Source: an uncultured Clostridia bacterium
Lineage (GTDB): Bacteria > Bacillota > Clostridia > TANB77 > CAG-465
Reading direction: 5' to 3'
NCBI GenBank assembly: GCA_944388585.1
Contig: CALXJI010000003.1
Coordinates: forward strand, 79,360 to 143,359
DNA length: 64,000 bases
The first letter of the stretch is position 1; the number at the start of each line of letters is the position of its first letter. Shown here one piece after another: positions 7,695-31,578 of this stretch. Both the position numbers and the translations under genes were made by a program. Below the pieces are notes generated by a model. The model was not told the origin of the DNA and did no database searches. It saw only the letters and a program-made list of their open reading frames with translations.

Positions 7695-8180
7695 TTATAA
7701 CATAAAATTCACAATAATTATTGTTGATATAACTGCTGCTAAATCTCCAATAAGTCCAGCTATAATTACTATTTTCAAATCTTTTATTTTTACTTTACTA
7801 GACAAAATAGAAATTACATATAACGTTGTTTCGGTAGATGCCATAAGTATTGATGCTACAAGACCAATAAAAGTGTCAGGTCCTATATTTTTAAAAATAT
7901 CTACTACTATAGATGTTGATGCTCCACCAGATAATGGCTTCATTAGTATTAAAGGAAGTAAATTTCCTGTTATTCCAAATATAGAAATATTTTCAAGTAT
8001 TTTTGTATCATTTATAAGACCAGAAATTATAGTTATTGCAAATATATAGGGAAATATATTATATACTGTTTTTAATCCTTCTTTTGCTCCCTCTATAAAT
8101 AATGAGTATACGTTTCTTCTTTCAAAAATTCCAACTATTATTATAATTAAAATAAATAATGGTACAATATAATTACTCAT
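7695..8180 (-). CDS. spmB: spore maturation protein B (nucleoside-recognition/Gate domain)
   Basis: 161 aa; FIEGAKEGLKTVYNIFPY...LMKPLSGGASTSIVVD...GPDTFIGLVASILMASTETTLYV closely parallels B. subtilis SpmB. Confidence 0.85.
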   Translation of the reverse strand: MSNYIVPLFILIIIIVGIFERRNVYSLFIEGAKEGLKTVYNIFPYIFAITIISGLINDTKILENISIFGITGNLLPLILMKPLSGGASTSIVVDIFKNIGPDTFIGLVASILMASTETTLYVISILSSKVKIKDLKIVIIAGLIGDLAAVISTIIIVNFML

Positions 8181-8849: not shown

Positions 8850-9524
8850 ATGAGTAAAAATCTATTTTTTGATGTTGGTAGAACTCTATTATATCCTAAG
8901 ACTCAAAATTGGTTTATACCACCAAATTATAACAATATACTAAATAATGTAACATTAAAGGAGTTAAAAAAATCTACTGAAAAACATAAGTACTTGTTAG
9001 ATGAACGACATATAAATACTGAGGAAGAAGAATTTGAGATGTTTTCAAAATTTTATTTATATGTATTAAAAGATCTAAATTACCCTGATATAAATCAACA
9101 AGTTATACAAAATCTCGCATACGACTGCGTATATAATGATGATAAATTTATATTTTATAAAGAAGTAAAAGATGAACTAATAAGTTTATCTAAAAATTAT
9201 AATTTATATGTTATATCTGATGCATGGCCATCAACATATAGAATATTAAAAAATTATGGTATTTTTGATCTATTTAAAAATGTATTTATATCATCTGACT
9301 TAGGATTTAAAAAATCTGATAAAACTCTTTTTGAAATAGCACTTGAAAAAATACCTTCTACCGATGAAAATTTCTTTATTGACGATAGATATGATTTACT
9401 TAAAATTTCCGAAAGTTATGGCTTTATTCCAATAATCATAGATAGAGATGATAATAAATTAACAAATTATATAGAAATAAATAACTTAACTCATTTAAAT
9501 GAATTACTAAATTACTATAAATAA
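8850..9524 (+). CDS. HAD-superfamily hydrolase
   Basis: Motif I FFDVGRTLL, later VISDAWPST, SDLGFKKSD and FIDD motifs typical of haloacid-dehalogenase-like hydrolases. Confidence 0.6.
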   Translation: MSKNLFFDVGRTLLYPKTQNWFIPPNYNNILNNVTLKELKKSTEKHKYLLDERHINTEEEEFEMFSKFYLYVLKDLNYPDINQQVIQNLAYDCVYNDDKFIFYKEVKDELISLSKNYNLYVISDAWPSTYRILKNYGIFDLFKNVFISSDLGFKKSDKTLFEIALEKIPSTDENFFIDDRYDLLKISESYGFIPIIIDRDDNKLTNYIEINNLTHLNELLNYYK

Positions 9525-9546
9525 AGTCGGACTTAAATCCGACTTT
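9524..9546. terminator. bidirectional intrinsic terminator between convergent genes
   Basis: Stem AAAGTCGG / CCGACTTT with 7-nt loop, flanked by A/T runs, lying between the 9524 and 9545 gene ends. Confidence 0.7.
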
Positions 9547-9994
9547 ATTCTATATAATCTGAAAAATCTATCAATCTATAAGTATATGCCACTTGTATTT
9601 TATTATTACTTTCCCTTTTTCTACTTTCTATTCCACCTGAATTTTCAAGAAATCTTCTCATTTTTTCATTCTTTTCATCACACCAAACAATTAAGCTTCT
9701 ATATCCTCTATCAAATAACTGTTTTTTAGTTTCAAAAAGTACTTCTGAATTTACTGTATCTTTATTTTTTACATTTCTTGTATAAATACCATATATTTCT
9801 GAATCATAATCGTCATCATCAACATCATCTGAACCAAAAAATGTAGCACTCACTATATTATTTTCTTCATTTTCATATACATACAAATACTTATCATCAT
9901 TTTTCATAAATTCTTTTATTTCTTCTTTTGATAATCCTATATTAGGTATCTCTACTATTTTATCTATATCGTTTACATTTGCTCTTCTATACAT
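9545..9994 (-). CDS. GNAT-family N-acetyltransferase (putative)
   Basis: 149 aa; C-terminal RGYRSLIVWCDEKNEKMRRFLENSGG resembles the GNAT motif A/B region. Confidence 0.45.
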   Translation of the reverse strand: MYRRANVNDIDKIVEIPNIGLSKEEIKEFMKNDDKYLYVYENEENNIVSATFFGSDDVDDDDYDSEIYGIYTRNVKNKDTVNSEVLFETKKQLFDRGYRSLIVWCDEKNEKMRRFLENSGGIESRKRESNNKIQVAYTYRLIDFSDYIE

Positions 9995-10217: not shown

Positions 10218-12389
10218 ATGAAATATTTAAAATACTTTTTAAAAAAATTAAAAAATTTTCTATTAAATTTACTACTTTTATTTTTATTCTTTTCCCCATT
10301 TGTAGTATTTTTTTCTTTTATGTTAATGGCAATAGTAAGTGAAGCGATAGATAATGGTGATCTTAATTTAAATCCAAATGATTATTGTAATTTAACAGAT
10401 GTTAACTATACTGCTGTACTATATGATGATCCTGATGGAAGTGCTAGTGTTGAAATTACTGAATATCTAACATTTGATGTTCACGCAGATTCACCATCTA
10501 ATACATATAAAGAATTATGGAGGGAACTTCCTGAAGATTATGTTGATGGTCTAAGAATAACCTATGACGTTGAATCAGTATCACAAATTTTAGATAACGG
10601 TCAAGAAATACCTTATACTGAGACTGATGAAATGTATTGGGAAGATTATGACTATACAGAAAGCTCTACTATGTATTGGCACCATAGTGATGGCTCAGGA
10701 ACATATCCTGATAATGATGAATCGTTATTAATATATATTCCTTGGACATACAGAGATAAATTAACATTTAAAATTGTATATTCAATGAATAATGCATCAT
10801 TAAGGTATAAAGATTGCTCTGAATTATATTTATCTATGTATTCTGGAAATACTATTACAAAACTAAATTCTTATAAAGCTCAAATTCTTATACCAAATGA
10901 AATAATGCCTTCTACATACTATGCATATACATTTGGTACATCTAATAGTAGATTGCCTTACAGTGAATCTGACACTATAAATCCTGGATATCACACATTC
11001 TCAATTGATTTAGATAAGTCAGATTTAAAATTTGATCGTTACAGTGAATATTTAGAATTTTGTTTACTTGCTTATGGTGATGACAAACGTATCTTTACGC
11101 AAAATGCTCCTACTAATATGTATTCTGGTCAAAATGTTTTAGATGAATGTATTGCAGAAAATGAGTACTATGAGACTAGAAATGAAAGATATAAAACATA
11201 TAAGATAGTATTACTTGTAATTTCTATACTTGGATCTGGTATACTTGTTATTAGCGGTATAAGAAAGTACAAAAAAATGAAAGAAAAATACACTTTTTAT
11301 GAGCCAGAAATAGACTTTGACTACTTTAGAGAAATACCAAGTGATTTAGATCCAATTTTTGCATCAGAATTAGTTTTTATGAAAGATCCTTTTGATGAAA
11401 ACAAAGAAAAAAAAGAAGAATATGCGGCAATTTTACTTAGTTTAGTAAGGAAGAACTATATTAAATTAACTAAACTAGATGCAAATAAAGACTGGACAAA
11501 TTCTAATACCGTAATATCTTTAGAGCCTATACGCACTGAATCTTTTATTCCTACTTTTAATGACTCTCCAGATTATTCACCAGAGCCTATTTATACCTCT
11601 ATAAATGAAAATACTGGAGAAAAAGTAGAAGCACTTACAACATCTGAAAGACTTTACTTAGAACTATTAGAAAGACATTCTAAGACTAAAAATAATTCAA
11701 TTACAATAAGTCAATTACAAGAATGTATAAATTCAGACTATGAATATACAAATTCATTTATAAAAGATATTGAAAAGAAACCAGTTCTGGAAAATGGTGT
11801 AATTAAAGGATACTTTCAGACTGCAGAATATGATAAACCAAAAAAAGAGCTTGAAAAAATGGCAAAATCAAGTTTACGCTTAGGATTGTTTTTACTAGTT
11901 GTTGTAAATTGTATTTCGTATTTTACACCTTTAGCTTTATGCTTCGGAGCTTATACTATTTTAGGTGTTGCTTGCTTATGGAAATATTTTTACCTAAATA
12001 TAAAATCAAGTAATTTACTTTTACTTACACAATTTGGTGCTAATGAACAAGCAAAGTGGTATGGTCTATATAACTTCTTAAAAAGTGATACATTAATCAA
12101 AGAAAGAGAAATTCATGAATTACCTTTATGGGAAAAATACTTAATTTATGCAACTGCCTTTGGTATTTCAGAAAAAGTTATTAAAGCCATAAAAATAAAT
12201 GCAGTAGAGTTAAATATTGATAATAGTCCAATATTAAATCACAATTTTTATATTCACTCACACAACTTTCATAGAACTTCCAGAGCTTTAGGTCGTTCAA
12301 TTCATACTTTTTCAAGAGGTGGTGGATTTAGAGGTCATGGTTATGGAGGCGGTGGCCGCGGAGGTGGCGGCGGTGGCGGTGGCCATTAA
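10218..12389 (+). CDS. DUF2207-like membrane protein with C-terminal glycine-rich tail
   Basis: Signal/TM N-terminus, large extracytoplasmic domain, central TM helices, C-terminal GGGFRGHGYGGGGRGGGGGGGGH tail as in DUF2207 proteins; true start may be an internal Met. Confidence 0.5.
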   Translation: MKYLKYFLKKLKNFLLNLLLLFLFFSPFVVFFSFMLMAIVSEAIDNGDLNLNPNDYCNLTDVNYTAVLYDDPDGSASVEITEYLTFDVHADSPSNTYKELWRELPEDYVDGLRITYDVESVSQILDNGQEIPYTETDEMYWEDYDYTESSTMYWHHSDGSGTYPDNDESLLIYIPWTYRDKLTFKIVYSMNNASLRYKDCSELYLSMYSGNTITKLNSYKAQILIPNEIMPSTYYAYTFGTSNSRLPYSESDTINPGYHTFSIDLDKSDLKFDRYSEYLEFCLLAYGDDKRIFTQNAPTNMYSGQNVLDECIAENEYYETRNERYKTYKIVLLVISILGSGILVISGIRKYKKMKEKYTFYEPEIDFDYFREIPSDLDPIFASELVFMKDPFDENKEKKEEYAAILLSLVRKNYIKLTKLDANKDWTNSNTVISLEPIRTESFIPTFNDSPDYSPEPIYTSINENTGEKVEALTTSERLYLELLERHSKTKNNSITISQLQECINSDYEYTNSFIKDIEKKPVLENGVIKGYFQTAEYDKPKKELEKMAKSSLRLGLFLLVVVNCISYFTPLALCFGAYTILGVACLWKYFYLNIKSSNLLLLTQFGANEQAKWYGLYNFLKSDTLIKEREIHELPLWEKYLIYATAFGISEKVIKAIKINAVELNIDNSPILNHNFYIHSHNFHRTSRALGRSIHTFSRGGGFRGHGYGGGGRGGGGGGGGH

Positions 12390-12450: not shown

Positions 12451-13910
12451 TATTTTAATAATACATCTTCCAATTTCAGTGAATCTAATTTTATATTAAG
12501 ACTACTCTCTATTTTCTTTTTACTTATTGTTTTGTAAATTGTTTTTGAAATATATTTTTCTGCAAAACTAATTATTTCTTTATAATCATCAATATCATCA
12601 GGAAAATATATTCCGCCTTTATCCTTGTGCTTTATCATCCAACAAGTAGCAGATAAAGCTGACATGGATACAGGAGTTATTGTTGGTGTTTGCCAAAAAG
12701 AGGATTTTTTATCCTTATATAAAAAACTTTTCTTTATCCTATTTCCTACCCATACTGGTCTAAATTTATTTCCCAATAACAATACTCCTACATACTCTGT
12801 ACCATGCTTTATATTTTCCTTATAAATAATTTCAGCTCTTTCAGGATATTTATATCCTCTTATAATTGAGACATTATCATCTTGAGGCTTATTTATATCT
12901 GTATGTAAATAATCATTTACTTTAGCTTCTTTTAAATATTTTATTGCAAAATCACAAGGAGAATATAAAAATATAACTGTTGGTCTATATATAACTTTAT
13001 CTTCTTTTTTTACTTCAAGAGATTTAGCAATAGTAATTGTCTCTTCGTGCGGTACTAAAAAACCTTCAAAATATCCATTTGGATAATATGTTTTTCCCAC
13101 TTTATTAATTGCAATATCTTTAAATTCTAAAAAGCCATTTTTAAAATCTATTTTTTTAATTTCTTCCTTATCATTTATTATTTCATCAGTTCCAATATTT
13201 GCGGTTGCTTCACTCAACATTTCGAAAAAAAATGAATCAACTGACCATGTACTATATAACTTATCCTTTTCAAACTTATCTTTAACCTCTTGATAATCGT
13301 TATCATTTACATGAATTTCCTTTAAATCAAGTTCTCTGGCAAGCTCATTAAATTTATGTTCCTTCAATAACATATTATATTTTTGATTATTCTTAAATTG
13401 ATTTTTTACAATATATTCAAGTCCTGCTTTTACAAAATGAGAAACTAATCCAGGATTATTTCCATGATGGATTACAATTGGATATTTATTTACATTATTT
13501 TCTTTCCTTAATAAATTACGTAATTCATTTTTCTTTATATTTTCCTCAAAAATATTATACCAATTATCGCTCCAATCTGTTTCTCCTGTATTTAAATACA
13601 TTACATTTTTGTTGGCACACCATTCTATAAAATCTCTTGTACCAACACTATCTGCAAAATCGATCAGCAAATCTCCTTCACTCAAATATTTACTAAATAT
13701 ATTTTTAAAATTTTCTCTATTAATCTCAGCTACAATAAAATTTCCAATATTTCCTCCCATTTCAAGAAAAAAAGCATATTCAAGTTTATCCATAGAAATA
13801 ACATAATATTTTTCTTTATCAAACTTTATTTCTTTAGATACTTTTTCAAAAAAACTCTTTCCTACTGCTCCAAACCCAAATTGTACTATTCTATTATTAA
13901 ATTCAATCAT
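12450..13910 (-). CDS. homospermidine synthase-like NAD-dependent enzyme (saccharopine-dehydrogenase fold)
   Basis: 486 aa; N-terminal Rossmann motif RIVQFGFGAVGKSF parallels bacterial HSS (IVMIGFGSIGRG); length matches bacterial HSS. Confidence 0.5.
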   Translation of the reverse strand: MIEFNNRIVQFGFGAVGKSFFEKVSKEIKFDKEKYYVISMDKLEYAFFLEMGGNIGNFIVAEINRENFKNIFSKYLSEGDLLIDFADSVGTRDFIEWCANKNVMYLNTGETDWSDNWYNIFEENIKKNELRNLLRKENNVNKYPIVIHHGNNPGLVSHFVKAGLEYIVKNQFKNNQKYNMLLKEHKFNELARELDLKEIHVNDNDYQEVKDKFEKDKLYSTWSVDSFFFEMLSEATANIGTDEIINDKEEIKKIDFKNGFLEFKDIAINKVGKTYYPNGYFEGFLVPHEETITIAKSLEVKKEDKVIYRPTVIFLYSPCDFAIKYLKEAKVNDYLHTDINKPQDDNVSIIRGYKYPERAEIIYKENIKHGTEYVGVLLLGNKFRPVWVGNRIKKSFLYKDKKSSFWQTPTITPVSMSALSATCWMIKHKDKGGIYFPDDIDDYKEIISFAEKYISKTIYKTISKKKIESSLNIKLDSLKLEDVLLK

Positions 13911-13913
13911 TAT

Positions 13914-14576
13914 TTATATCTCTTCCTTTTCAAATTTTTCTTTTATTGTTTTCTTTAAAATAATTCTTTTAGGACATGCATATCCATCTGTTATATAAAT
14001 TTCAATTCCCTTACTTTGAAAATTTAATAAAATCTTTTTTATATCCTGGTTAATAGTATCACCTATAACTATTATTTTATCTATATTATTTTGTTTGAAA
14101 TATTCAGCAGACGGAACATCTTGTTTATATAAGTCCCAACTATTATCAAAAATTGATTCTTTTGATCTATATCTATTTATTCTGTAACTATCTAATAAAA
14201 AAGCTGGATTTGCATCGTTTTTTAGATTAATATTTTTTAGTATTTCACTACCATTTATTAGACAACTTTCTATTAAATAAGTGTTATTAGTAGCAATACA
14301 TCCTTGTTGTTCATCAGTGCCATTAAAAACGGGGATTGGTCTATATCCTAAATAAGATAAAGCAATTCCAAACTCTATACTCTCTTTACCAGGTAAATCC
14401 ACAAATATAGCACTATCTTGTTGATATTTCTTTATAAACACTATTTTTCTATCACACCAATCACTAATAGGTTTTCTATTATAAATATCAATTGCAACAA
14501 ATGGTACTGGTCTTACCCAATCTATCCACTTTGCTCCATTAGGTGCATATATTTTAAAAATATCTTTTCCGTTCAT
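13914..14576 (-). CDS. hypothetical protein (220 aa), translationally coupled between ATP-grasp and HSS-like genes
   Basis: No recognisable motif; several conserved-looking Cys (DWCDRK, QQGCIATNN, GYACPK); 3-4 nt intergenic gaps on both sides. Confidence 0.3.
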   Translation of the reverse strand: MNGKDIFKIYAPNGAKWIDWVRPVPFVAIDIYNRKPISDWCDRKIVFIKKYQQDSAIFVDLPGKESIEFGIALSYLGYRPIPVFNGTDEQQGCIATNNTYLIESCLINGSEILKNINLKNDANPAFLLDSYRINRYRSKESIFDNSWDLYKQDVPSAEYFKQNNIDKIIVIGDTINQDIKKILLNFQSKGIEIYITDGYACPKRIILKKTIKEKFEKEEI

Positions 14577-17431: not shown

Positions 17432-17508
<77 letters not shown>

Positions 17509-17554: not shown

Positions 17555-17968
17555 TCACTTTCTTAAGTCTTTAAAAAAATCACTTAATATTTTAGAGCAT
17601 TCTTTATACTCCATATTAACTAACAATTTTTTATCATATTGTGTTGAATTATTATCTAAAGCTCCAAAATATACCTTCTCAATTCTAGCCTGTTTTATCG
17701 CTCCTAAACACATTTGACATGGATATAAAGTAACATACATTTTACATCCTTCAAGTCTCCATGCCTTTAATTTTTTACATGCTTTATTTATACATAAAAT
17801 CTCTGCATGTGCTAAAGCATTTTTTTTAGTTTCACGTAAATTATATGCTCTTGAAATTATCTTATCTTCTTTTACAATAATTGCGCCAACTGGTACTTCT
17901 TTTTTTTTATAAGCTTTTTTTGCCTCTTTAAAAGCTTCAATCATATATTTATCCACATTATCCACCAT
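17555..17968 (-). CDS. tadA: tRNA-specific adenosine deaminase TadA
   Basis: 137 aa; VPVGAIIV...HAEILCINKACKKL...PCQMCLGAI zinc-binding CDA motifs (HAE, PCxxC) at TadA spacing. Confidence 0.8.
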   Translation of the reverse strand: MVDNVDKYMIEAFKEAKKAYKKKEVPVGAIIVKEDKIISRAYNLRETKKNALAHAEILCINKACKKLKAWRLEGCKMYVTLYPCQMCLGAIKQARIEKVYFGALDNNSTQYDKKLLVNMEYKECSKILSDFFKDLRK

Positions 17969-18054: not shown

Positions 18055-18131
18055 GACTTTGTAACTCAGTTGGATAGAGTGCTTCCCTCCTAAGGAAGAA
18101 GTCGGCGGTTCAAATCCGCCCAAGGTCACCA
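18055..18131 (+). tRNA. tRNA-Arg (anticodon CCT)
   Basis: GACTTTGTAACTCAGTTGGATAGAGTGCTTCCCTCCTAAGGAAG..GGCGGTTCAAATCCGCCCAAGGTCACCA; anticodon loop CTCCTAA; T-arm GGTTCAAATCC. Confidence 0.9.
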
Positions 18132-24101: not shown

Positions 24102-24857
24102 TTATTTAAAAAATTCTTGTAATCCTATATATATCCCCCAAGCTAACTTTTCTTGATAATCTTCTTGCTCTAGTTTTTTTGCTTCTTCTTCATTAGATAA
24201 AAAGCCACATTCTACAGTTACAGTTGCATTTTCTACATGATCCATAATATAAATACCTTTTAATACCAATGGTACTCTATTATTAGGGGTGGAAATAGTA
24301 TTGTTTAACGAATCTTGTATATTTTTTGCAAGTCTTATACTTTCTTCATTTCCTTCTTGATAAAAAGTCTGCCAACCACTATATACATTTGATGGGTACT
24401 TATTAAGATGAATAGAGATAAAAGCATCTACATCTTCATCATTTCCTATCAATACTCTATTTTTTATATCACTTACCTTTTTTTCTTTTAAAGTTGTAGC
24501 ATCAGAAGAATATATTCCATTTTCATCGCTTCGAGTAAGATATACTACTCCCCCACTTTGCTCAATAAGTTTTTGAAGTTTTAATGCAATTTTTAAATTT
24601 ATTGCTTCCTCTGTCGTACCATAAACTCCAACTGCACCTTCATCTGGAAGCCCATGCCCCGCATCTATTACTACCACATGAGATGTTATAGGTGTAGAAT
24701 TTGTAGCTATTGTTTCTGAGCTTTTATTTAAAAATATTATACTAAGTAATATAATTAAAATTATTAAAAAAATGAAAAAAATTAATTTGTACTTTTTCAA
24801 AATATCACCTAGTATAATGTATGTCTTTTTTATTATTTTGATTACATCAAATAACAA
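24102..24857 (-). CDS. cwlD: N-acetylmuramoyl-L-alanine amidase (Amidase_3, CwlD-like, sporulation/germination)
   Basis: Signal/TM N-terminus; VVVIDAGHGLPDEGAVG...SIHLN motifs of Amidase_3; size and context fit CwlD. Confidence 0.7.
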   Translation of the reverse strand: MLFDVIKIIKKTYIILGDILKKYKLIFFIFLIILIILLSIIFLNKSSETIATNSTPITSHVVVIDAGHGLPDEGAVGVYGTTEEAINLKIALKLQKLIEQSGGVVYLTRSDENGIYSSDATTLKEKKVSDIKNRVLIGNDEDVDAFISIHLNKYPSNVYSGWQTFYQEGNEESIRLAKNIQDSLNNTISTPNNRVPLVLKGIYIMDHVENATVTVECGFLSNEEEAKKLEQEDYQEKLAWGIYIGLQEFFK

Positions 24858-24864
24858 TTAATAT

Positions 24865-24900
24865 ACAAAAAACAGGCGGGAGCAAAATTTCTCCCGCCTG
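24865..24900 (-). terminator. GC-rich intrinsic terminator of cysS
   Basis: CAGGCGGGAG-caaaattt-CTCCCGCCTG followed on the minus strand by TTTTTTG. Confidence 0.8.
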
Positions 24901-24915
24901 CCTTTCTGCTAACTT

Positions 24916-26385
24916 TTAAGCGTTATATAACGCTTTAAAATCCCAAACAACACCATCTCTGGTATCACTAAGAATAATTCCCTTTTTATCAAGCTCTGCC
25001 CTAATAGCATCAGCCTTCTGAAAGTCTTTCTCTTTCTTAGCTTCTGCTCTTAAAGCAATCTGCTCTTCTATATAGGAAACGTCAACAGAAGTTTTTTGCA
25101 AGTACTTATCCTTCATCTGCGAAATGAAGTCGTCTGGATTCTGTGTGAAAAGACCTAAGATACCGTATACCTCCTTAACATTAGCAAGGATTTTAGCGAC
25201 TGTGTTGGCAACTTTAACCCTATTTGCCTTCTTAGCTGTTTTCATGAGATTGTTAGCATATTTGAAAATACCATACAACTCAGAAATCGCCGCAGAAGTA
25301 TTGAAATCATCATCCATAACCTCAATAAATTTAGGAATGATGTTTCCGGAAATGTCGCCATCAACAGATTCGCTGTCAACGCTACCGCCATACTGAGAGA
25401 CAAAGTTCTCAATTGCTTTTATCACATTGTAAAAATAATACATGTGCTTTTCAGCAAGTGAAAAGTCTTTATCAAGCAGATCCATGTCAGATGTGTAATG
25501 CTTAGAAAACATAACATACTTGATAACTTCGTAGTTATACATCTTCAAAGCATCCCTGATTGTAAGCGAATTACCAAGCGACTTACTCATTTTCTCACCA
25601 TTGATTTTGATAAGTCCGCAATGCGACCAATATCTAGCAAACTGCTTGCCAGTATAAGCTTCGCTCTGTGCGATCTCATTTTCATGATGAGGAAATACTA
25701 AGTCCTTTCCACCGCCATGAATATCGATGGTTTCGCCCAAGTTGTTAAGAACCATAGCAGAGCACTCAATGTGCCAACCAGGTCTTCCAAGTCCCCAAGG
25801 TGACTCCCAAGAAATTTCGCCGGGTTTTGCCGATTTCCAAAGTGCAAAATCCAACGGATCATGTTTACCTTCCTCGACATCCTTTCTTACACCGTTTAAC
25901 AGTTCGTCAATACGACGTTTAGAAAGTTTACCGTACTCAGGAAAGCTTCTTACACTGAAATACACATCACCTTTATCGGTAGCATATGCATGCCCCAATT
26001 CAATGAGTCCCTGTACGAGACGGATGATGTTATCAATGTTTTCAGATGCTTTTGGTTTAATGTCTGCATCAGTAACATGCAGATTTCTCATGTCAAGCTC
26101 AGTTTCAGCAATTTGCTCTCTTGAAAATTCAAGTGCATCCTTGCCAAGCTTGTTTGCACTGTTGATGATTTTATCATCTACGTCTGTATAGTTGCGAACA
26201 TAAGTTACATCATACCCTCTGTAACGAAGGTAATCCGCAACCATTGCATAGGCAATTGCTTGCCTTGCATGACCAATGTGGCTCAAGTCATAGACTGTGA
26301 TACCACAAGCGTACATTTTGACTTTGTTTGGCTCGATAGGAATGAATTCCTCTTTCTTACCAGTCATTGAATTGTAAATTTTCAT
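24916..26385 (-). CDS. cysS: cysteine--tRNA ligase
   Basis: 489 aa; [18 protein letters not shown] (HIGH motif), KMSKSLGN (KMSKS motif); base composition far more GC-rich than neighbours. Confidence 0.9.
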
Positions 26386-26549
26386 TGTGGTTTTCCTCCT
26401 TTACTGTTAATAAAGTTGCAATATCAGTACTTGTCAAAAAAAGTTTTGAATTTAACATCACTTCAAAATTTTTTAGTGACTCATACTAAAAACTACGTCA
26501 TAATTATAGCATAATAGTTTACATATTTCAACAGTTTTATGTAAATTTT

Positions 26550-27464
26550 TTATTTATATAACTCTGTAGATAAATATCTTTCTCCAGAGTCTGGCAATAT
26601 AATTACAACTTTTTTATTATTTTTAGCATAATGTTTAGCTGCATCAATAACAGAACCAGAAGAAATTCCTACTAATAATCCCTCTTTTTGTGCCACTTCT
26701 CGTGAAGATTGGTAAGCTTCGTCAGTTGTAACTGTATATACCTCATCTATTATATTTCTATCTAATATCTCTGGTATAAAATTAGCTCCTATTCCTTGTA
26801 TTCCGTGTTGTCCAGCTATACCCTTAGAAATCAATGGAGATTCAGCAGGCTCTACTGCCACTATTTTTATATCTTTATTTTTTTCTTTTAAATATTTTGC
26901 AATTCCAGTCAAAGTACCTCCAGTTCCTACAGATGCGATAAATACATCTATATTTCCATCCATATCTTCCCAAATTTCAGGTCCTGTTGTCTTATAATGA
27001 GCATTAACGTTTGCAGGATTTGTAAATTGCCCAGCAATAATAGCTCCAGGAGTTTGTTTAAGTATTTCGTCCGCTTTATCTAAAGAACCTTGCATTCCAA
27101 GTGCTGCATCAGTTAAAACGACCTCTGCGCCATATGCCTTTAATACTTTAATTCTCTCTTCACTCATACTTGAAGGCATTGTTAAAATAACTTTATATCC
27201 CTTTAATCTTGCAATAAAAGCAAGACCAATTCCTGTATTACCACTTGTAGGTTCTATTATTGTTGCTCCAGGTTTTAAAATTCCTTTTCTTTCAGCATCT
27301 TCTATAATTTCAAGTGCTGCTCTATCTTTTACACTTCCAGCAGGATTATACTTTTCTAGTTTTGCATAAATTTCTCCTGTTAAATTATTTGTTTTTTCCA
27401 TATTATTAAGTCTTAGCATTGGTGTATTTCCAACCAATTCAATTAAATTTTGATATACCTTCAT
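26550..27464 (-). CDS. cysK: cysteine synthase A (O-acetylserine sulfhydrylase)
   Basis: 304 aa; NPAGSVKDRAAL PLP-lysine motif; GNTGIGLA; 12 nt downstream of cysE. Confidence 0.9.
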   Translation of the reverse strand: MKVYQNLIELVGNTPMLRLNNMEKTNNLTGEIYAKLEKYNPAGSVKDRAALEIIEDAERKGILKPGATIIEPTSGNTGIGLAFIARLKGYKVILTMPSSMSEERIKVLKAYGAEVVLTDAALGMQGSLDKADEILKQTPGAIIAGQFTNPANVNAHYKTTGPEIWEDMDGNIDVFIASVGTGGTLTGIAKYLKEKNKDIKIVAVEPAESPLISKGIAGQHGIQGIGANFIPEILDRNIIDEVYTVTTDEAYQSSREVAQKEGLLVGISSGSVIDAAKHYAKNNKKVVIILPDSGERYLSTELYK

Positions 27465-27476
27465 TTTTATTCCTCC

Positions 27477-28076
27477 TTATCTTTTTATTATTCTATCTGT
27501 AGGTACACCTACAGCAGTCACATCATCTTCAAGATTTTTAAGCACTACTGCACCAGCTCCTATTTTTACATTATTTCCTATTGTTATTGGTCCTAAAATC
27601 TTTGCACCTGCACCTATTAGAACATTATTTCCAATAGTTGGATGTCTTTTAACCTTATCTTTACCAGTTCCTCCAAGAGTAACTTGATGATAAATTGTAC
27701 AATCATCTCCTACAATAGCTGTTTCACCTATAACAACTCCCATACCATGATCTATAAATAATCTTTTACCAATTTTTGCACCAGGATGAATTTCTATACC
27801 TGTAAAAAATCTTCCAAGTTGTGAAACCAATCTAGCTAAAAAGAATCTATTATGTCTATATAGAAAATTACCTATTCTATAATATATTAATATATGAAAT
27901 CCTTGATATAGTAAAATAACTTCTAATAAACTTTTAACTGCTGGATCTTTTTCTTTTATATTTTTAGCATCTAAATATAATTGTTTTATTCCATAAAAGA
28001 AACCTTTTTCTTTTATTTTTAATTCCTTTTTTTCATTAGTAGATACTTTTATTAAACTCACTTTATTAATTTCCAT
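27477..28076 (-). CDS. cysE: serine O-acetyltransferase
   Basis: 199 aa; hexapeptide-repeat left-handed beta-helix ([28 protein letters not shown]); SD GAAGGAG before the ATG. Confidence 0.85.
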
Positions 28077-28104
28077 TACTATTACTCCTTCATTACTAAA
28101 AATA

Positions 28105-28141
28105 ACTACAAAAAAACTATGTAGTTGCCTACATAGTTCAT
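28105..28141 (-). terminator. leader (attenuator) terminator upstream of cysE
   Basis: Minus strand: AACTATGTAG-GCAA-CTACATAGTT followed by TTTTTTTG, 28 nt before the cysE SD. Confidence 0.7.
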
Positions 28142-28217
28142 ATATTTAATTAAAAAATATATTCTCTTTACTGTAGGCACGAAATTAGACACTCATACCT
28201 ACATTCAGATACGAGCG

Positions 28218-28262
28218 TTATTTCATACAACAACAGCAGTTTACGAATATATTTTTTTTCAT
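28218..28262 (-). CDS. candidate Cys leader peptide MKKNIFVNCCCCMK
   Basis: ATG 7 nt after SD AAAGGAGAG; codons TGC TGT TGT TGT in a row; lies between a consensus promoter and the leader terminator. Confidence 0.55.
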   Translation of the reverse strand: MKKNIFVNCCCCMK

Positions 28263-28303
28263 ATAAATTCTCTCCTTTTCTATATTATGCACTATTATAT
28301 AAT

Positions 28304-28332
28304 ATAATAAAAAAAAAGTCAATATTTTATTT
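28304..28332 (-). promoter_or_regulatory. sigma-A-type promoter for the cysE-cysK leader
   Basis: Minus strand: TTGACT - 17 nt - TATAAT, both consensus hexamers. Confidence 0.65.
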
Positions 28333-28350
28333 ATTGTTATTATAAAATTC

Positions 28351-28384
28351 AATAAAAACTAGGGGAGAATTAATTCTCCCCTAG
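28351..28384 (-). terminator. GC-rich intrinsic terminator of the CyuA-like gene
   Basis: CTAGGGGAGAAT/TAATTCTCCCCTAG perfect palindrome followed on the minus strand by TTTTTATT. Confidence 0.75.
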
Positions 28385-28412
28385 CCGACTACTTGATTTA
28401 CTGATTACGGTC

Positions 28413-29717
28413 TCATCTTACGATGATGTCCAAGATGCTCTTGTCCATGACCACAGCCGAGTCTTTCTCAATTTTTGCGTAATTCTGAACAGTCTGTTTG
28501 ATGTCGGAACTTACGATGCCAACGTCGTCTGTAATGCACCCCTTGCCACTAAGTGCAAGATCAGCCGCATACATTCCGGCGGAGACACACGCACACACCT
28601 TCATTGCACAGGTGCTTTTTGCACCGTCGCAAAACATACCAGACACAGTACCAAGCATATTCTGAATCGCATATTCTGCCTGCTTATAATCACCGCCAAG
28701 AAGATATACGATACCAGTAGTTGCTCCAGTACTTGCGATGACAGCTCCGCACAAATGAGAAAGAACATTAAGTTCTTTCTTAATGTACATTGCCGTCAAG
28801 TCAGCTACTGCCACAGCACGAAGCATCTTTTCTTCAGAAGCTCCGATTTCTTTTGCCACCTGTACAACAGGCAACGTGGTAGTAAGGCCCTGATTTCCGC
28901 TTCCAGTGCACGCCATTACAGCTAACGGTGCTCCACCCATTCTTGCATCAATTGCAGAAGTGGTCGTAGAGATAACCCTGGAGAAGATTGTATCTTCACC
29001 GAAAGGCTGAGCCTTTCCTACATTAAGTCCGTAGTTTGTAACTTTACCGTGCTCACTAATTGCAGTATTGAGTTCCACAGCTTTTTTGAAGATAGAGAGG
29101 TCATCAGTGGTATTTGCATACTCAAAGATTTCCTTCATGGTAATTTCTTCATACTCAGCTTTGCTGTCAGTGGTGCTGTCAGCTTCGCCTTCACTCATCT
29201 TAGAGTGAATAACTTCACCGTTCCGTTCGATGAGAACAACATTTGTGTGCTCATCTTCGATTACGACCCTCGCCATGTTGCAACAACAACAGCAACAACA
29301 GCTCTTCTTCGAAGAATCTTCCTTGCCATAAGCAGTGACCTGGATAAAAAGAGATTTCGGCGAATCGGTAATCTTCACCGACACATTATCCTTGGAAAAT
29401 TCATAGGCATAATCCTGATCCTCTTTTGCAACATTGCCAAGAAGTTCAAAACCATCCTCAGACTTTCCAAACAGGCCACCCTCTGCAGTCACGAATGCTG
29501 CGCCAACGTAGTTGGAGCCAGGTACACCAGCATCCATTGCATTCTTAGCCATATTAGGGCTAAGTTCAACTTCAAATCTGGTAGGCTCTTCGCCCAGTGC
29601 TTCTTTTGCAATAGCACTTGCATATGCAATTGCAATAGGCTCTGTGCATCCAGTGGATACTAACAAATACTTGTCCATCAGTTTCTGAATTTTGTGTTTC
29701 TGTTTCGTGGTAAGCAT
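28413..29717 (-). CDS. L-cysteine desulfidase-like (CyuA/YhaM, UPF0597, serine-dehydratase-like) with internal 7-Cys run
   Basis: STGCTEPIAIAYASAIA N-terminal signature of UPF0597/CyuA; ~435 aa from the ATG at 29717 (SD AAAGGAGGAAAAATT; the longer ORF to 29798 is unlikely); SCCCCCCCN insert; GC ~48%. Confidence 0.6.
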   Translation of the reverse strand: MLTTKQKHKIQKLMDKYLLVSTGCTEPIAIAYASAIAKEALGEEPTRFEVELSPNMAKNAMDAGVPGSNYVGAAFVTAEGGLFGKSEDGFELLGNVAKEDQDYAYEFSKDNVSVKITDSPKSLFIQVTAYGKEDSSKKSCCCCCCCNMARVVIEDEHTNVVLIERNGEVIHSKMSEGEADSTTDSKAEYEEITMKEIFEYANTTDDLSIFKKAVELNTAISEHGKVTNYGLNVGKAQPFGEDTIFSRVISTTTSAIDARMGGAPLAVMACTGSGNQGLTTTLPVVQVAKEIGASEEKMLRAVAVADLTAMYIKKELNVLSHLCGAVIASTGATTGIVYLLGGDYKQAEYAIQNMLGTVSGMFCDGAKSTCAMKVCACVSAGMYAADLALSGKGCITDDVGIVSSDIKQTVQNYAKIEKDSAVVMDKSILDIIVR

Positions 29718-29855
29718 AATTTTTCCTCCTTTACTACGAAAAACCATAACCAATTGCAACAAGTAATCAAACACCATGTGGATGTAATTACACCACATTT
29801 AAATATGTTTAATTACAAGAAGAATTTTATCACTATTACATTTATATGTCAACAC

Positions 29856-29876
29856 CAAAACGCAAATAATTTGCGT
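29856..29876. promoter_or_regulatory. perfect 10-1-10 palindrome AAACGCAAAT-A-ATTTGCGTTT in divergent intergenic region (candidate operator)
   Basis: Exact inverted repeat centred between the divergent CyuA-like gene and the 30006 gene; no upstream gene for which it could be a terminator. Confidence 0.4.
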
Positions 29877-30005
29877 TTTTGCTATTTTTATTCTTTTTTA
29901 GATACTTTTTTTTACATTTCTATTGATTTTTAAGCTTTTTTATGTTATATTAAAGTCCTGTAGCAGTTGGCTATTCTTATCTTATTAGAAAGGAAGGTTA
30001 TTGTC

Positions 30006-30425
30006 ATGTTATCAATTATGAACGTAGAACTCATTCAATTTCAACAAGCACGGTTCATGTCCGAAGATAATCATCGCTACCTCGAAAAGGGAAAGAAAAT
30101 AAAAAAACATCTTTCTCTTTCGGAAGATGAAGAAGACACTTTGAAAGCTCTTGAGGGCAAAGACCTCACTGCAAGATCATTGATTCTCTATCAAAAGCTT
30201 CTCATTAAAAAAGCACTCTACGAAGGTGTTAACAATGGGAGATTTCTGTATGAGATTGATTTTGGTGTTCCTCTTGAAGAAGAGGTAAAGCAGTGGTCAA
30301 GAACTTTCGGATATGCATTAAGTGCTAAATCTAACACAATTTGGGTTACTGGTCGTGACGGCTGGCAGTATGAGTCAATTGACTCTCCACCCCCTTCTAA
30401 AACGGAATTCACCTTGCTTTGGTGA
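30006..30425 (+). CDS. hypothetical protein (139 aa), GC-rich, divergent from the CyuA-like gene
   Basis: SD GAAAGGAAGG before the ATG at 30006 (ORF track starts at 29967); no known motif. Confidence 0.4.
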   Translation: MLSIMNVELIQFQQARFMSEDNHRYLEKGKKIKKHLSLSEDEEDTLKALEGKDLTARSLILYQKLLIKKALYEGVNNGRFLYEIDFGVPLEEEVKQWSRTFGYALSAKSNTIWVTGRDGWQYESIDSPPPSKTEFTLLW

Positions 30426-30463
30426 AATATTCCACAAAAAATGAATGCTTAGACAATCATTTC

Positions 30464-30492
30464 CACCGAGTAAAATCGGTGGTTTTTATTTA
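30464..30492 (+). terminator. intrinsic terminator
   Basis: CCACCGA-gtaaaa-TCGGTGG followed by TTTTTATTT. Confidence 0.75.
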
Positions 30493-30660
30493 TTCACTCT
30501 AATTCAATTTTTTTAATTACATTACATATTCTACTACTCTATATTATCATCTTACACAAATATTTATTAATATTATTTAATTTTAACTTTTATCTATTTA
30601 TATTATTATCATAAAAACGAATTAAAAACATATATTATAATATATATTTTAAAAAGGAGA

Positions 30661-31578
30661 ATGTATATGAATAATATGAATAATTCATATCCATCAATAC
30701 CATATGTTGGATATAAAAATAAAAACATAAAAATACCTATTACTTTCAAAGGCCAACATCAATCAGTTCAGCCTGGAATGGAATATAAAATGGAACCATT
30801 ACCTATATTTGAAAACCCAAATTATTCTCCAAGTGATAAACTAAAAAATAAAACAGTCATTATTTCTGGTGGAGATAGTGGAATAGGAAGAGCGATAAGC
30901 GTTTTATTTGCAAAAGAGGGAGCAGATATTGTTATTAACTATTTAAACGAACACGAAGATGCTAATTTTACAAAAAAAAGTGTAGAAAAACATGGTAGAA
31001 AGTGTTTACTTATTCCTGGAGATTTAAGAGAAGAAAAATTATCCCAAGAAATAGTAAATAAAACTATATCTACTTTTGGAAAAATAGATATTCTAATAAA
31101 TAATTGTGGAGTTCAATATCCTCAAGACAGTATTCTAGATATATCTAGCAAGCAATTAAAAGATACATTTGAAACTAATATCTTTACCTTCTTTTATTTG
31201 ACGAAAGCTGTTTTACCACATTTAAAAGAAAACAGTAGTATTATTAATACAACTTCAATTACAGCCTTCGACGGAAAAAAGAATTTAATAGACTACTCAG
31301 CTACAAAAGGAGCAATAACTGTATTTACAAAATCTCTTGCACTATCACTTGCAGACAAAAAAATTCGCGTCAATGCCGTTGCTCCCGGTCCAATATGGAC
31401 ACCTCTTATTCCGTCGTCTTTTAGCATAGAAGAAGTAGAAATATTTGGTACAGAAACTCCTCTTAAAAGAGCAGGTCAACCCTTTGAGCTTGCACCAGCA
31501 TATTTGTATCTTGCAAGTGATGAATCAAGATATGTAACAGGGCAAATATTACACGTAAATGGTGGGACTATTGTATAG
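30661..31578 (+). CDS. SDR-family oxidoreductase (YhdF-like)
   Basis: VIISGGDSGIGRAISVLFAKEGADIVINY Rossmann motif; NNCG; Y..K active-site spacing. Confidence 0.7.
   Translation: MYMNNMNNSYPSIPYVGYKNKNIKIPITFKGQHQSVQPGMEYKMEPLPIFENPNYSPSDKLKNKTVIISGGDSGIGRAISVLFAKEGADIVINYLNEHEDANFTKKSVEKHGRKCLLIPGDLREEKLSQEIVNKTISTFGKIDILINNCGVQYPQDSILDISSKQLKDTFETNIFTFFYLTKAVLPHLKENSSIINTTSITAFDGKKNLIDYSATKGAITVFTKSLALSLADKKIRVNAVAPGPIWTPLIPSSFSIEEVEIFGTETPLKRAGQPFELAPAYLYLASDESRYVTGQILHVNGGTIV

Follow-up and report, generated by a model that had tools for sequence, protein, structure and literature searches.

A GC-rich second cysS gene, linked to cysteine biosynthesis genes, is vertically inherited in AT-rich uncultured Clostridia

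The window, which is the whole 64-kb stretch of DNA analysed here, has a GC content of 26.2% and carries a cysE-cysK-cysS cluster on its minus strand. The last gene of this cluster, here called cysS2 (24916..26385, 489 aa), is, judging from its domains and motifs, a genuine cysteine–tRNA ligase. The protein combines a tRNA-synt_1e domain (Pfam, E 5e-126) with DALR_2, an anticodon-binding DALR domain, and scores 524 bits against the NCBIfam cysS equivalog TIGR00435 (cutoff 340). It is not MshC, since its score against that model (265 bits) lies below the cutoff of 485. The HIGH, WHIECS and KMSKS motifs are found at residues 36, 204 and 265; the WHIECS segment presumably corresponds to the zinc-site region of known CysRS. 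Between cysS2 and its orthologue at locus L011, dN/dS is about 0.06.

We find that cysS2 is a GC-rich island in AT-rich DNA, as the initial annotation had proposed. Its total GC is 39.3%, with GC1, GC2 and GC3 values of 0.480, 0.318 and 0.380. Fifty-eight other ORFs of the window have a GC3 of 0.128 ± 0.024 (maximum 0.193), which places cysS2 at z = 10.3. The approximately 50% GC reported for positions 25741-25800 is exactly 50% in that 60-nt window, and the described antisense ORFs are present (25124-25396 and 25727-26191). Across the whole window, 2.1% of 60-nt windows have at least 45% GC, most of them inside cysS2 or between 28.4 and 30.4 kb. The rise in GC begins at the cysS2 start codon: the 117-nt leader (26386-26502) has 27% GC, and leaders and intergenic DNA together range from 24 to 27%, so coding sequence alone is enriched. 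Codon usage follows the CAG, AAG, ATC, GGC and CTT style of mid-GC Clostridia, and ATA, TTA and CTA are absent. The intrinsic terminator on the minus strand (CAGGCGGGAG..CTCCCGCCTG, about 24866-24903), also cited as GC-rich, does have a 10-bp stem with 8 G-C pairs followed by a T-run. This is not diagnostic, because intrinsic terminators in general have GC-rich stems.

Such a contrast is not typical of cysS genes. Across 63 unrelated genomes, cysS lies 0.04 ± 0.06 above the median GC3 of the ORFs that flank it, compared with 0.25 in the window. These 63 control loci are the usable matches from a scan of genome contigs with the whole CysRS; among the matches listed, the best was 50% identical, and the universal motif WHIECSAM dominated the scan. 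An assembly artefact can be rejected. In the assembly collection, the identical CysRS protein is indexed in 186 blocks and recorded on contigs as long as 576 kb; 23 contigs were read, and all 10 places shown, on contigs of 69-240 kb, have an identical context. Public gut datasets contain the species in abundance.

The cysteine biosynthesis genes next to cysS2 do not share its composition. On the minus strand, cysK (cysteine synthase A, 26550..27464; TIGR01139, 425 bits, cutoff 351) has a GC3 of 0.125 and encodes no Cys residue, and cysE (serine O-acetyltransferase, 27477..28076; TIGR01172, 236 bits, cutoff 211) has a GC3 of 0.055 and encodes one. Both are thus of native composition, though sandwiched between GC-rich genes. 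The GC-rich gene beyond cysE (28413..29717, minus strand, 434 aa; GC 44.7%, GC3 0.42) matches SDH_alpha (PF03313, E 8e-48) and is 36-42% identical to homologues named 'L-cysteine desulfidase' at source. By homology, it belongs to the L-cysteine desulfidase family (CyuA / UPF0597) as a predicted enzyme. The window gene falls in a separate subfamily (at least 45% identity) that is restricted to uncultured Clostridia, and it contains seven consecutive Cys codons at 29300-29280. Divergent to it lies a small partner ORF (30006..30425, plus strand, 139 aa; GC 39%, GC3 about 0.35), homologues of which adjoin the desulfidase-family gene at L013, L098, L099 and L108. The small ORF had no match in Pfam or NCBIfam, its single-sequence structure model reached a pLDDT of 58, and a metagenome scan with its alignment returned four loci and no added context. 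The compositional anomaly is therefore common to cysS2, the desulfidase-family gene and the small ORF, with cysE and cysK exempt. An alpha-amylase gene at 53501-55375 also deviates, but more mildly (GC3 0.27) and with another pattern of codons.

The surroundings of cysS2 comprise an amidase gene, an HD-domain gene, cysK and cysE. No neighbour belongs to a Pfam integrase or transposase family, nor to any other mobility, resistance or biosynthetic-cluster family. The only tRNA genes of the window lie 7 kb from cysS2. Scans of viral contigs with the desulfidase-family gene and the CysRS C-terminus were negative, which leaves a phage-borne cassette unsupported.

cysS2 has its own leader. This region (26386..26502, minus strand) contains a palindrome, TCACT-N12-AGTGA (26458-26479), that occurs once in the window; it also has a hairpin with a trailing U-run and, ahead of the RBS, a TTGCAA box. 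The leader is conserved upstream of GC-rich cysS genes at L013, L098 and L107 (alignment A3). Between cysK and cysS2 lies a promoter-like site on the minus strand (26503..26531; TTGAAA-17-TATAAT with an extended -10 TG) that matches at 11 of 12 positions and is conserved at the same three loci. The T-box is the usual regulatory device of aaRS and cys genes in Firmicutes. An Rfam search of the window found no T-box leader (RF00230) upstream of aaRS or cys genes, nor any other match at the gathering threshold, and positions 24700-30700 gave none at E <= 5. RNAalifold on a MAFFT alignment of the cysS2 leaders gave no consensus; individual folds suggest alternative hairpins, weakly for L107 and L098. 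We found no motif shared between the cysS2 leader and the regions upstream of the desulfidase-family gene.

A different conserved element, observed in passing, precedes cysE (28107..28322, minus strand). It consists of a promoter (28322-28294), a leader ORF with an RBS (MKKNIFVNCCCCMK, 28262-28218) that contains tandem Cys codons, and a terminator followed by a T-run (28139-28114). Alternative UGUAGG/CCUACA pairings are possible, and the RNA fold has a z of -6.5. Both hairpins are kept in 10 of the 11 aligned leaders, and a UGUAGG to UGCAGG change is compensated in all partners. We interpret the element as a ribosome-mediated leader-peptide attenuator with a putative response to cysteine. Leader ORFs of this kind, with 3-4 tandem Cys codons, precede both cysteine biosynthesis genes and native cysS genes.

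cysS2 is a second, operon-linked type of cysS that has been vertically inherited since before related lineages split. Orthologues lie directly after cysK at L011/L012 and L013/L014, which represent related AT-rich Clostridia lineages. Amino acid identity to the orthologues at L011 and L013 is 86% and 81% for cysS2, and 88% and 80% for cysK; BcrAD is 86% identical. Third-base excess identity of cysS2 (0.38 and 0.23, respectively) likewise matches that of native genes (0.26-0.42). The orthologues are themselves GC-elevated, with a GC3 of 0.24 at L011 and 0.52 at L013, compared with 0.38 in the window. This is the lineage-wide pattern that the initial annotation had named as grounds against a recent transfer. 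L013 carries both a GC-rich cysS2 and a native-composition cysS1, 68% identical and 8 kb apart. The L013 cysS1 has a poly-Cys leader peptide, and the leader of cysS2 is different. A search with the L013 cysS1, extended to cluster members and to one candidate (P0317 at L100), gave no gene linked to the window species by common samples or by abundance.

These comparisons change how the gene should be read. The initial annotation described a xenologous or recently replaced cysS. The foreign-looking composition and the distinct second type hold up; recency, replacement and an origin from a donor do not. A recent import fails because the orthologues share the same position and diverge, at both amino acid and synonymous sites, to the same extent as their native neighbours. 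A foreign donor finds no support either. The nearest other CysRS homologues (72-77% identity) come from genomes of 27-29% GC, where the genes have a native GC3 of 0.13-0.17. The 242 nearest family members include no mid-GC donor, and all have an AT-type amino acid composition. The suggested link to antibiotic-like inhibitors gained no support from a Pfam search of the neighbouring genes, which show no family for antibiotic or inhibitor biosynthesis.

The anomaly recurs at other loci of AT-rich Clostridia, where a cysS lies beside cysteine genes. At L098, L099, L107 and L108, the cysS gene, desulfidase-family gene and small ORF have a GC3 of 0.26-0.50, with flanks at 0.14-0.18, and cysE, cysK and PALP genes are of native composition. 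The L098/L107 cysS grouped with the window clade in none of 200 bootstraps of a neighbour-joining tree, in which deep branches are weakly supported and paralogue recombination is present (P0063). The cysS at L099 is of an unrelated type, about 32% identical. These separate GC-rich clades may share ancestry, as the common cysS2 leader hints. In other contexts, cysS genes are of native composition (L095, L096, L097, L100, L106 and the L013 cysS1). The L106 gene is a mosaic: its C-terminal half is cysS2-like (75-82% identity), it occupies a cysS1-type locus, and its GC3 is 0.10-0.20. At L108, further GC3-rich genes have no connection with cysteine, among them a phosphorylase gene (GC3 0.47).

The three codon positions of cysS2 are out of balance. 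In a regression across 69 cysS genes, GC1 and GC2 fall short of expectation in each of the six GC3-rich ones. The GC3 implied by GC1 and GC2 is 0.21-0.25 in the window, against an observed 0.38; it is 0.36-0.38 against 0.52 at L013, and 0.09-0.10 against 0.33 at L099. Since GC1 and GC2 lag behind GC3, this is the opposite of what amelioration from a GC-rich donor would produce.

Neutral decay of a single import also fits poorly. At two-fold sites of native genes, the strong or weak (S/W) state is nearly uncorrelated between orthologues (r = 0.04 and 0.13), so that a single import followed by neutral decay needs an extreme ancestral G/C content. At the point estimate, the required ancestral two-fold G/C fraction is greater than 1; at the upper 95% bound of r, it is 0.92-1.02 for L013 and 0.66 for L011, values drawn from few native G/C sites at nearly saturated divergence under a simple two-state model. 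Four-fold sites agree with two-fold sites. The site-wise S/W correlation by itself does not separate decay from stationarity and is not decisive, because a nearly all-G/C ancestor also predicts low covariance. Within species, SNPs at third positions of the three GC-rich genes comprise 10 S>W and 7 W>S changes, where decay would give roughly 5:1; these are small numbers, and the minor allele served to assign polarity.

We tentatively favour, at somewhat less than even confidence, the reading that GC-rich cysS2 is a gene-specific codon or nucleotide state kept by selection. Co-divergence, recurrence, restriction to the coding sequence and a poor fit to neutral decay are shown by the data; from these, together with the absent donor, a disequilibrium in the wrong direction for amelioration, dependence on context and the SNP split within species, we infer selection. 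On this reading, cysS2 would predate the split of the window lineage from at least two uncultured AT-rich Clostridia lineages, with vertical descent since, and its G/C-rich third positions would be a long-lived state common to the desulfidase-family gene and the small ORF. The coding sequence itself would most likely be the target of selection, through effects on translation or on mRNA. The GC-rich genes avoid ATA, TTA and CAA, use less AAA and GAA, and have fewer U-ending two-fold codons; the preferred C- and G-ending codons could be read by Watson-Crick pairing. Expression might then rely less on wobble-base tRNA modifications, several of which would need cysteine-derived sulfur or SAM. Alternatively, it might rely less on the protection of mRNA by translating ribosomes. 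Both wobble modification and ribosome protection would probably be compromised under cysteine limitation.

Several observations weigh against maintenance by selection. The spread of orthologue GC3 resembles non-equilibrium more than a stable optimum. GARP is 0.20-0.23 against a family median of 0.18, a slight GC-ward amino acid shift which suggests a nucleotide-level force or an earlier residence in a genome richer in GC. The codon pattern is like that of ordinary mid-GC Clostridia, and cysE and cysK, equally genes for cysteine limitation, are unaffected. The GC3-rich genes at L108 that are unrelated to cysteine fit a genome mosaic with imports. A stronger version of the selection reading is that the second CysRS, the desulfidase-family enzyme and the partner protein share a private dialect of G/C-ending codons, under selection and proof against cysteine limitation; we consider this doubtful. 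Cysteine limitation would cripple sulfur- or SAM-dependent wobble modification and stall ribosomes on the remaining, AU-rich transcriptome, and the translation or mRNA survival of the dialect genes would stay functional or be specifically tuned. The dialect would then form a regulon encoded in codon usage, beside the poly-Cys leader-peptide 'ribulon'.

The main rival to selection is an old horizontal acquisition with unusually slow or uneven amelioration, which we regard as rather unlikely but still deserving of weight. In a shared ancestor, cysS2 would have come from a GC-richer, unsampled relative within the CysRS family, and the desulfidase-family gene and partner ORF would have been acquired separately. 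Vertical inheritance would have followed, with drift toward host composition still under way and differing in rate between lineages. The shift of all amino acid families in the style of mid-GC Clostridia, the slight change in amino acid composition, and the graded GC3 of the orthologues (0.52, 0.38, 0.24) are all consistent with this history. So are the native cysS1 kept at L013, which makes cysS2 an added copy, the clearly foreign type of the L099 cysS, and the further GC-rich genes at L108. Against it, we find no donor-like homologue in 5.8 billion proteins, and the closest relatives have AT-rich hosts. GC1 and GC2 lie below the GC3-based expectation rather than above it, and the L013 comparison needs an ancestral two-fold G/C of about 0.9 or more. 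Old transfer also has to accommodate a native cysE-cysK pair that has a GC-rich block on either side, both in the window and at L013, and other gene arrangements elsewhere in which cysE, cysK and PALP are still native. Furthermore, three cysS lineages that form no common group show the anomaly, and where a cysS2-like segment occupies a cysS1-type locus, its composition is entirely AT-type. The reading of the initial annotation, in which a foreign cysS recently replaced the native one, perhaps under pressure from an aaRS inhibitor, is extremely improbable. It draws on the strong compositional contrast and on the known propensity of aaRS genes for horizontal replacement. However, the lineages of L011 and L013 share the feature, the gene has diverged there in step with the genome, the exact protein sits in an unchanging context at all 10 places shown, and L013 retains both cysS copies; neither a donor nor an adjoining Pfam mobility, resistance or biosynthetic-cluster gene was found.

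Processes other than a single transfer have also been weighed. Repeated introgression, or GC-biased gene conversion (gBGC), at recombination or exchange hot spots among co-resident Clostridia would hold GC high through frequent heteroduplex repair or the entry of GC-richer alleles. This could explain the recombinant cysS2 haplotypes seen within the species (P0127 and P0128 versus P0122 and the window) and the cysS1/cysS2 mosaic P0063, and GC1 and GC2 trailing GC3 would fit an ongoing GC-ward push. This explanation is nevertheless unlikely: adjoining leaders and intergenic DNA are not enriched, the intervening cysE and cysK are untouched, cysS2 has diverged as much as native genes with no sign of recent allele replacement, and no GC-rich allele pool was seen. 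In addition, the shift in GC3 from 0.12 to 0.4-0.6 far exceeds the effects of bacterial gBGC in the literature. Ordinary translational selection for very high expression through host-optimal codons is more improbable again, and we largely reject it. The avoidance of ATA and TTA, the excess of NNC codons, and the preference for T over A at four-fold sites do follow the usual direction of optimal codons in Firmicutes, and the window amylase has a milder form of the pattern. Yet genes for the typically abundant proteins PFL, AhpC and FtsZ have a GC3 of 0.10-0.18 in relatives, as do those for RpoD, LeuRS and ProRS. The amylase keeps AAA, GAA and CAA where the GC-rich genes use AAG, GAG and CAG (NNG fraction 0.03-0.22 versus 0.3-0.86), and further members of the same cysS family have a native composition.

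The two-CysRS arrangement has parallels among duplicated aaRS genes with separate regulation, such as thrS/thrZ and tyrS/tyrZ of B. subtilis and the mupA IleRS2 resistance copy. As in those pairs, two diverged CysRS genes occur in one genome (L013, 68% identity) with leaders of their own, and cysS2, with a leader distinct from that of cysS1, is linked to biosynthesis genes for its cognate amino acid. Unlike those pairs, cysS2 lacks a T-box, its neighbours have no Pfam match that would tie it to an inhibitor or biosynthetic cluster, and it shows a persistent, lineage-wide codon anomaly, which to our knowledge has not been described for thrS/thrZ, tyrS/tyrZ or mupA-type pairs. In the model of Lawrence and Ochman, compositionally atypical genes are acquired DNA undergoing amelioration. 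The sharp contrast of cysS2 with its host, strongest at third positions, agrees with that model. Its co-divergence in relatives, the lack of a donor, and the lag of GC1 and GC2 behind GC3 do not, and at the decay rates of native genes the signal would be largely gone.

Codon-based gene control is known from bldA and TTA codons in Streptomyces and from the theory of starvation-robust codons. The anomaly resembles such control in that a small functional set of genes relies on synonymous codons seldom used elsewhere in the genome, so that translation could depend on a particular tRNA or physiological state. It differs in that every amino acid family is shifted instead of one codon, and our evidence is one of comparative composition. 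Another example of control through codon choice is provided by the serine TCN codons of B. subtilis sinR (PMC3862929). For the element upstream of cysE, similar cases are uORFC-8-2, a leader-peptide attenuator with Cys codons upstream of cysS in Rhodobacterales (PMC8632094), and the polycysteine short ORFs of mycobacteria (bioRxiv 10.1101/834739). The element shares with Cys-codon leader attenuators a short ORF with tandem Cys codons, hairpins and a terminator; it is distinct in its AT-rich Clostridia host, its UGUAGG/CCUACA triple motif and its lack of an Rfam family.

Atypical GC is routinely read as recent horizontal transfer, a reading that fails its own tests at cysS2. If the state is maintained by selection, it would represent a natural, whole-gene synonymous recoding that marks off a functional module and connects the physiology of sulfur and cysteine with codon usage. 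Caution would then also be called for in composition-based detection of horizontal transfer in AT-rich genomes. If cysS2 is instead an old import, its amelioration has been far slower than native synonymous turnover predicts, which itself needs explaining. Under either reading, these gut and rumen Clostridia combine a two-CysRS arrangement with a putative cysteine-sensing leader-peptide system in place of the usual T-box.

The cysS gene of the window is a GC-rich coding sequence in AT-rich surroundings. As the initial annotation had claimed, this gene (24916-26385, minus strand; 489 amino acids) stands apart from its context, with a GC content of 39.3% against 26.2% for the window and GC1/2/3 of 0.480/0.318/0.380. 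Its GC3 lies 10 s.d. from the mean of the 58 other ORFs of the window (0.128, s.d. 0.024, maximum 0.193). The internal 60-nt stretch at 25741-25800, put at ~50% GC, is exactly 50%, and the antisense ORFs reported within cysS are present. A GC-rich terminator does lie at about 24866-24903; it is nevertheless uninformative, as any intrinsic terminator is expected to have a GC-rich stem. Across 63 unrelated genomes, cysS GC3 minus that of flanking ORFs is +0.04 ± 0.06, compared with +0.25 here. Pfam domains tRNA-synt_1e and DALR_2, a TIGR00435 equivalog match of 524 bits (cutoff 340), and HIGH, KMSKS, and WHIECS motifs identify the predicted product as a bona fide cysteine--tRNA ligase (CysRS). 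In the assembly collection, 186 blocks index the identical protein, and gene order is unchanged at all 10 places among the matches listed, which rules out a chimeric assembly.

GC-rich and native genes form a mosaic at the cysteine locus. Three genes of the window are GC-rich: cysS, an SDH_alpha / L-cysteine-desulfidase-family gene (28413-29717, minus; GC3 0.42), and a small divergent ORF (30006-30425, plus; GC3 about 0.35). Between them lie cysK (GC3 0.125) and cysE (GC3 0.055), both of native composition. The enrichment ends at the borders of the coding sequences: GC is 24-27% in the leaders of cysS and cysE and in the DNA between the desulfidase-family gene and the small ORF. All three GC-rich genes shift to AAG, GAG, and CAG, and ATA and TTA are nearly gone.

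The desulfidase-family gene also carries seven Cys codons in tandem (SCCCCCCCN; 29280-29300, minus) in a variable loop. Homologs have CC..CCN variants of this run, and the homolog in L013, a bovine metagenome contig, is without it (alignment A1, of desulfidase-family proteins); in one strain (L007) the called gene encodes 433 amino acids instead of 434. The tandem Cys codons might sense Cys-tRNA supply from within the ORF of a cysteine-degrading enzyme; alternatively, they might encode a metal-binding loop. The small-ORF protein (120-140 amino acids) has no Pfam or NCBIfam match, and its single-sequence AlphaFold model is of low confidence (pLDDT 58). It adjoins a desulfidase-subfamily gene in all loci seen, namely the window and four relatives (L013:5884-6309, L098:9076-9441, L099:4397-4804, and L108:11470-11868, all minus), where it is also GC3-rich.

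Elsewhere in the window, genes for tRNA-Arg(ACG) (17432-17508, minus) and tRNA-Arg(CCT) (18055-18131, plus) flank a cytidine/adenosine-deaminase-fold gene (17555-17968, minus), TadA-like by the Pfam matches of its ortholog in L001. tRNA-Arg(ACG) is a TadA substrate. The AGG-dedicated tRNA is retained despite the 26% GC genome.

The closest cysS homologs from other species occupy the same genomic place. One lineage (L011/L012) encodes a CysRS 86% identical to that of the window, in cysK-cysS order, with a cysS GC3 of 0.24 in a 26% GC context. Another (L013/L014; 81% identity) has the whole mosaic, with GC3 of 0.60 for the small ORF, 0.57 for the desulfidase-family gene, 0.11 for cysE, 0.085 for cysK, and 0.52 for cysS. 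L013 also has an additional cysS of native composition (GC3 0.108) 8 kb upstream; since this cysS1 is only 68% identical to the GC-rich gene, the latter represents a distinct second type, cysS2. Amino acid identities to the window (L011/L013) are 86/81% for cysS2 and 88/80% for cysK, and 86% for the native neighbor BcrAD. Third-base excess identity at conserved residues is 0.38 and 0.23 for cysS2 and 0.26-0.42 for native genes; between the window and L011, cysS2 has a dN of 0.074 and a dS of 1.26. As cysS2 has diverged like its native neighbors, it was present in the common ancestor and has since descended vertically under purifying selection. By these comparisons, the GC-rich gene is an old second CysRS, linked to the operon and passed on vertically. 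The initial annotation's proposal of a recent cysS replacement thus fails, and we consider it highly improbable: GC-raised orthologs sit at the same place in both lineages, the congruent, lineage-wide pattern it had named as counterevidence. Among cysS2 protein variants of the window species (P0122, P0127, and P0128), two haplotypes differ by 9 residues, and recombinant haplotypes carry just the first 2 or last 7 of these differences, indicating intragenic homologous recombination.

The search for a donor yielded AT-rich relatives. The next cysS homologs (72-77% identity) have GC3 of 0.13-0.17 and lie in genomes of 27-29% GC, where their surroundings are unrelated and of housekeeping type. GC-rich cysS sequences nest within an AT-rich radiation in neighbor-joining (NJ) trees, the method used throughout. 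No GC-rich donor was found among the 242 nearest CysRS family members from 5.8 billion proteins, DNA having been examined for a handful of them; the most “GC-like” amino acid composition among the 242 is that of the cysS2 clade itself (GARP ≤0.23). Sources of the desulfidase subfamily (≥45% identity) are named solely “Clostridia bacterium” metagenome-assembled genomes, and other named L-cysteine desulfidases are at most 42% identical to the window protein. Scans of viral contigs for the desulfidase-family gene and the CysRS C-terminus were negative.

Similar mosaics recur in more distant AT-rich contigs, examined by way of their desulfidase-subfamily members and additional cysS homologs. In L098, GC3 is 0.32 for each of cysS, the small ORF, and the desulfidase-family gene, versus 0.15 for cysE, 0.18 for cysK, and about 0.16 for the flanks. 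L099 pairs a divergent 466-residue cysS (GC3 0.33; only about 32% identical) and a desulfidase-family gene (0.43) with a native PALP gene (0.14). In L107, a cysK fragment (0.07) precedes cysS (0.36), and in L108 the HD_4 (0.44), desulfidase-family (0.40), and small-ORF (0.50) genes accompany a PALP gene at 0.18. The L098/L107 cysS joins the window clade in 0 of 200 NJ bootstraps. Conversely, native GC3 is seen in six members of the same cysS family that sit in other contexts (L095, L096, L097, L100, L106, and the L013 cysS1). The L106 gene (P0063; L106:2175-3647) has a leader and N-terminal 240 residues that are cysS1-like (about 90% identical to L013 cysS1), and a C-terminal half (residues 301-480) 75-82% identical to L013 cysS2 and 37-55% to cysS1, which points to recombination between the two types. 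This mosaic is AT-type throughout (GC3 0.10-0.20); therefore, GC-richness tracks locus and context rather than protein ancestry.

Two observations run counter to this. A homologous promoter and leader precede the GC-rich cysS in the window, L013, L098, and L107 (window 26386-26531, minus; L013:9808-10000; L098:5283-5390; L107:232-346), so these genes may be one old paralog family scrambled by recombination. The window cysS2 has its own promoter (26531-26503, minus), followed by a roughly 110-nt leader, distinct from the poly-Cys leaders described below and conserved from the window clade to the L098/L107 clade. This leader contains a TCACT-N11/12-AGTGA palindrome (N12 in the window), a TTGCAA box, and a hairpin followed by a U-run, and may act as an operator or attenuator. 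Moreover, L108 has GC3-rich genes unrelated to cysteine (0.40-0.47; L108:2351-2806, 4094-5749, 9203-9931, and 13774-14136), so the phenomenon may extend beyond cysteine genes. The GC3-rich extras of L108 include a glycogen phosphorylase gene (0.47) and the HD_4 gene, which lies immediately upstream of the desulfidase-family gene and belongs to a Pfam family associated with RelA/SpoT-type (p)ppGpp hydrolases.

An old import followed by neutral amelioration fits these genes poorly. In native genes, the G/C versus A/T state of conserved two-fold sites is nearly uncorrelated from one ortholog to the other (r = 0.04 for window versus L011 and 0.13 for window versus L013). Under one shared process, the product of two descendants' excess G/C fractions equals the squared ancestral excess times r. 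Observed two-fold fractions (0.42 and 0.63 for cysS2; 0.44 and 0.72 for the desulfidase-family gene) then demand that the ancestral G/C fraction exceed 1 when r is set to its point estimate, and that it be 0.92-1.02 (L013) or 0.66 (L011) when r is set to its upper 95% bound, figures that rest on few native G/C sites, near-saturated divergence, and simple models. Four-fold sites point the same way: even an all-G/C start predicts a present GC4 of 0.23-0.29; cysS2 has 0.10-0.30 (L011, at 0.10, is compatible with the model), and the desulfidase-family gene and small ORF reach 0.41-0.50. The very GC-rich donor so required is excluded by codon-position disequilibrium. When a GC-rich gene decays in an AT-rich host, its GC1 and GC2 are expected to exceed the values implied by its GC3; when 69 cysS genes are fitted by regression, the six that are GC3-rich all deviate the opposite way (implied versus observed GC3: window, 0.21-0.25 versus 0.38; L013, 0.36-0.38 versus 0.52; L099, 0.09-0.10 versus 0.33). 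They resemble genes for AT-type proteins in which synonymous sites have been pushed toward, or held at, G/C. Third-position polymorphisms within species in the three GC-rich genes, small in number and polarized by minor allele, comprise 10 changes from G/C to A/T and 7 the other way, where a decaying gene should give about 5:1.

By sequence comparison, then, the anomaly is lineage-wide, confined to coding sequence, common to two neighboring gene families, recurrent, and ill-fitting to neutral decay. We tentatively favor its maintenance by a gene-specific force, of which selection on the coding sequence would be the simplest. As a speculative mechanism, the affected genes may have become less dependent on tRNA modification: they shed codons whose decoding relies on modified wobble bases and prefer C- or G-ending ones. 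ATA decoding needs lysidine; AAA, GAA, and CAA decoding needs xm5s2U34, whose sulfur derives from cysteine; the tRNA that decodes TTA carries a modified wobble U; and queuosine favors U-ending two-fold codons. Alternatively, raised GC might shield these mRNAs during ribosome stalling caused by a lack of Cys-tRNA, an idea that Cys counts of 3 in CysRS and 15 in the desulfidase-family protein fit, versus 0 in CysK and 1 in CysE; the small ORF's 0 counts against it. Three points weigh against simple selection: the wide GC3 spread among orthologs, the small amino acid shift, and the fact that cysE and cysK are spared. Our preference is therefore guarded, and an old transfer whose amelioration has been anomalously slow or uneven is a possible, if doubtful, alternative. 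Recombination or GC-biased gene conversion as the source of the anomaly we regard as unlikely. High-expression codon bias is more improbable still: the alpha-amylase-family gene of the window (53501-55375, plus; GC3 moderately raised, 0.27) favors C-ending two-fold codons and CTT and retains AAA, GAA, and CAA, a pattern consistent with expression-linked bias and unlike the cysS-type anomaly.

The native genes of the locus have a regulatory signature of their own. No T-box was found in the window (Rfam). Behind a strong promoter (28322-28294, minus), the cysE leader contains a 14-codon ORF, MKKNIFVNCCCCMK (28262-28218, minus), and a terminator (28139-28114, minus), and folds with a z-score of -6.5. 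It has the features of a poly-Cys leader-peptide transcription attenuator (28107-28322, minus), with alternative UGUAGG/CCUACA pairings. Leaders of this kind (M..F.NCCC(C)..), which match no Rfam family, lie upstream of cysE, cysK, PALP, and native cysS1-type genes in eight relatives (L011:8714-8758; L013:1500-1541 and about 8076-8120; L098:7098-7166 and 11905-11946; L099:9017-9061; L108:13117-13161, minus; L095:about 9799-9834; L100:about 9824-9865; L106:about 2006-2047). Both hairpins are kept in 10 of 11 aligned leaders, the L098 cysE leader being the exception, and UGUAGG to UGCAGG changes come with compensatory changes in the pairing partners (first hairpin, terminator, and implied antiterminator). 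Cysteine leader-peptide attenuators are known from Rhodobacterales cysS (PMC8632094) and from mycobacteria (bioRxiv 10.1101/834739). The window leader is a new instance of this kind, in Clostridia, in which a poly-Cys leader appears to stand in for the usual T-box at these loci.
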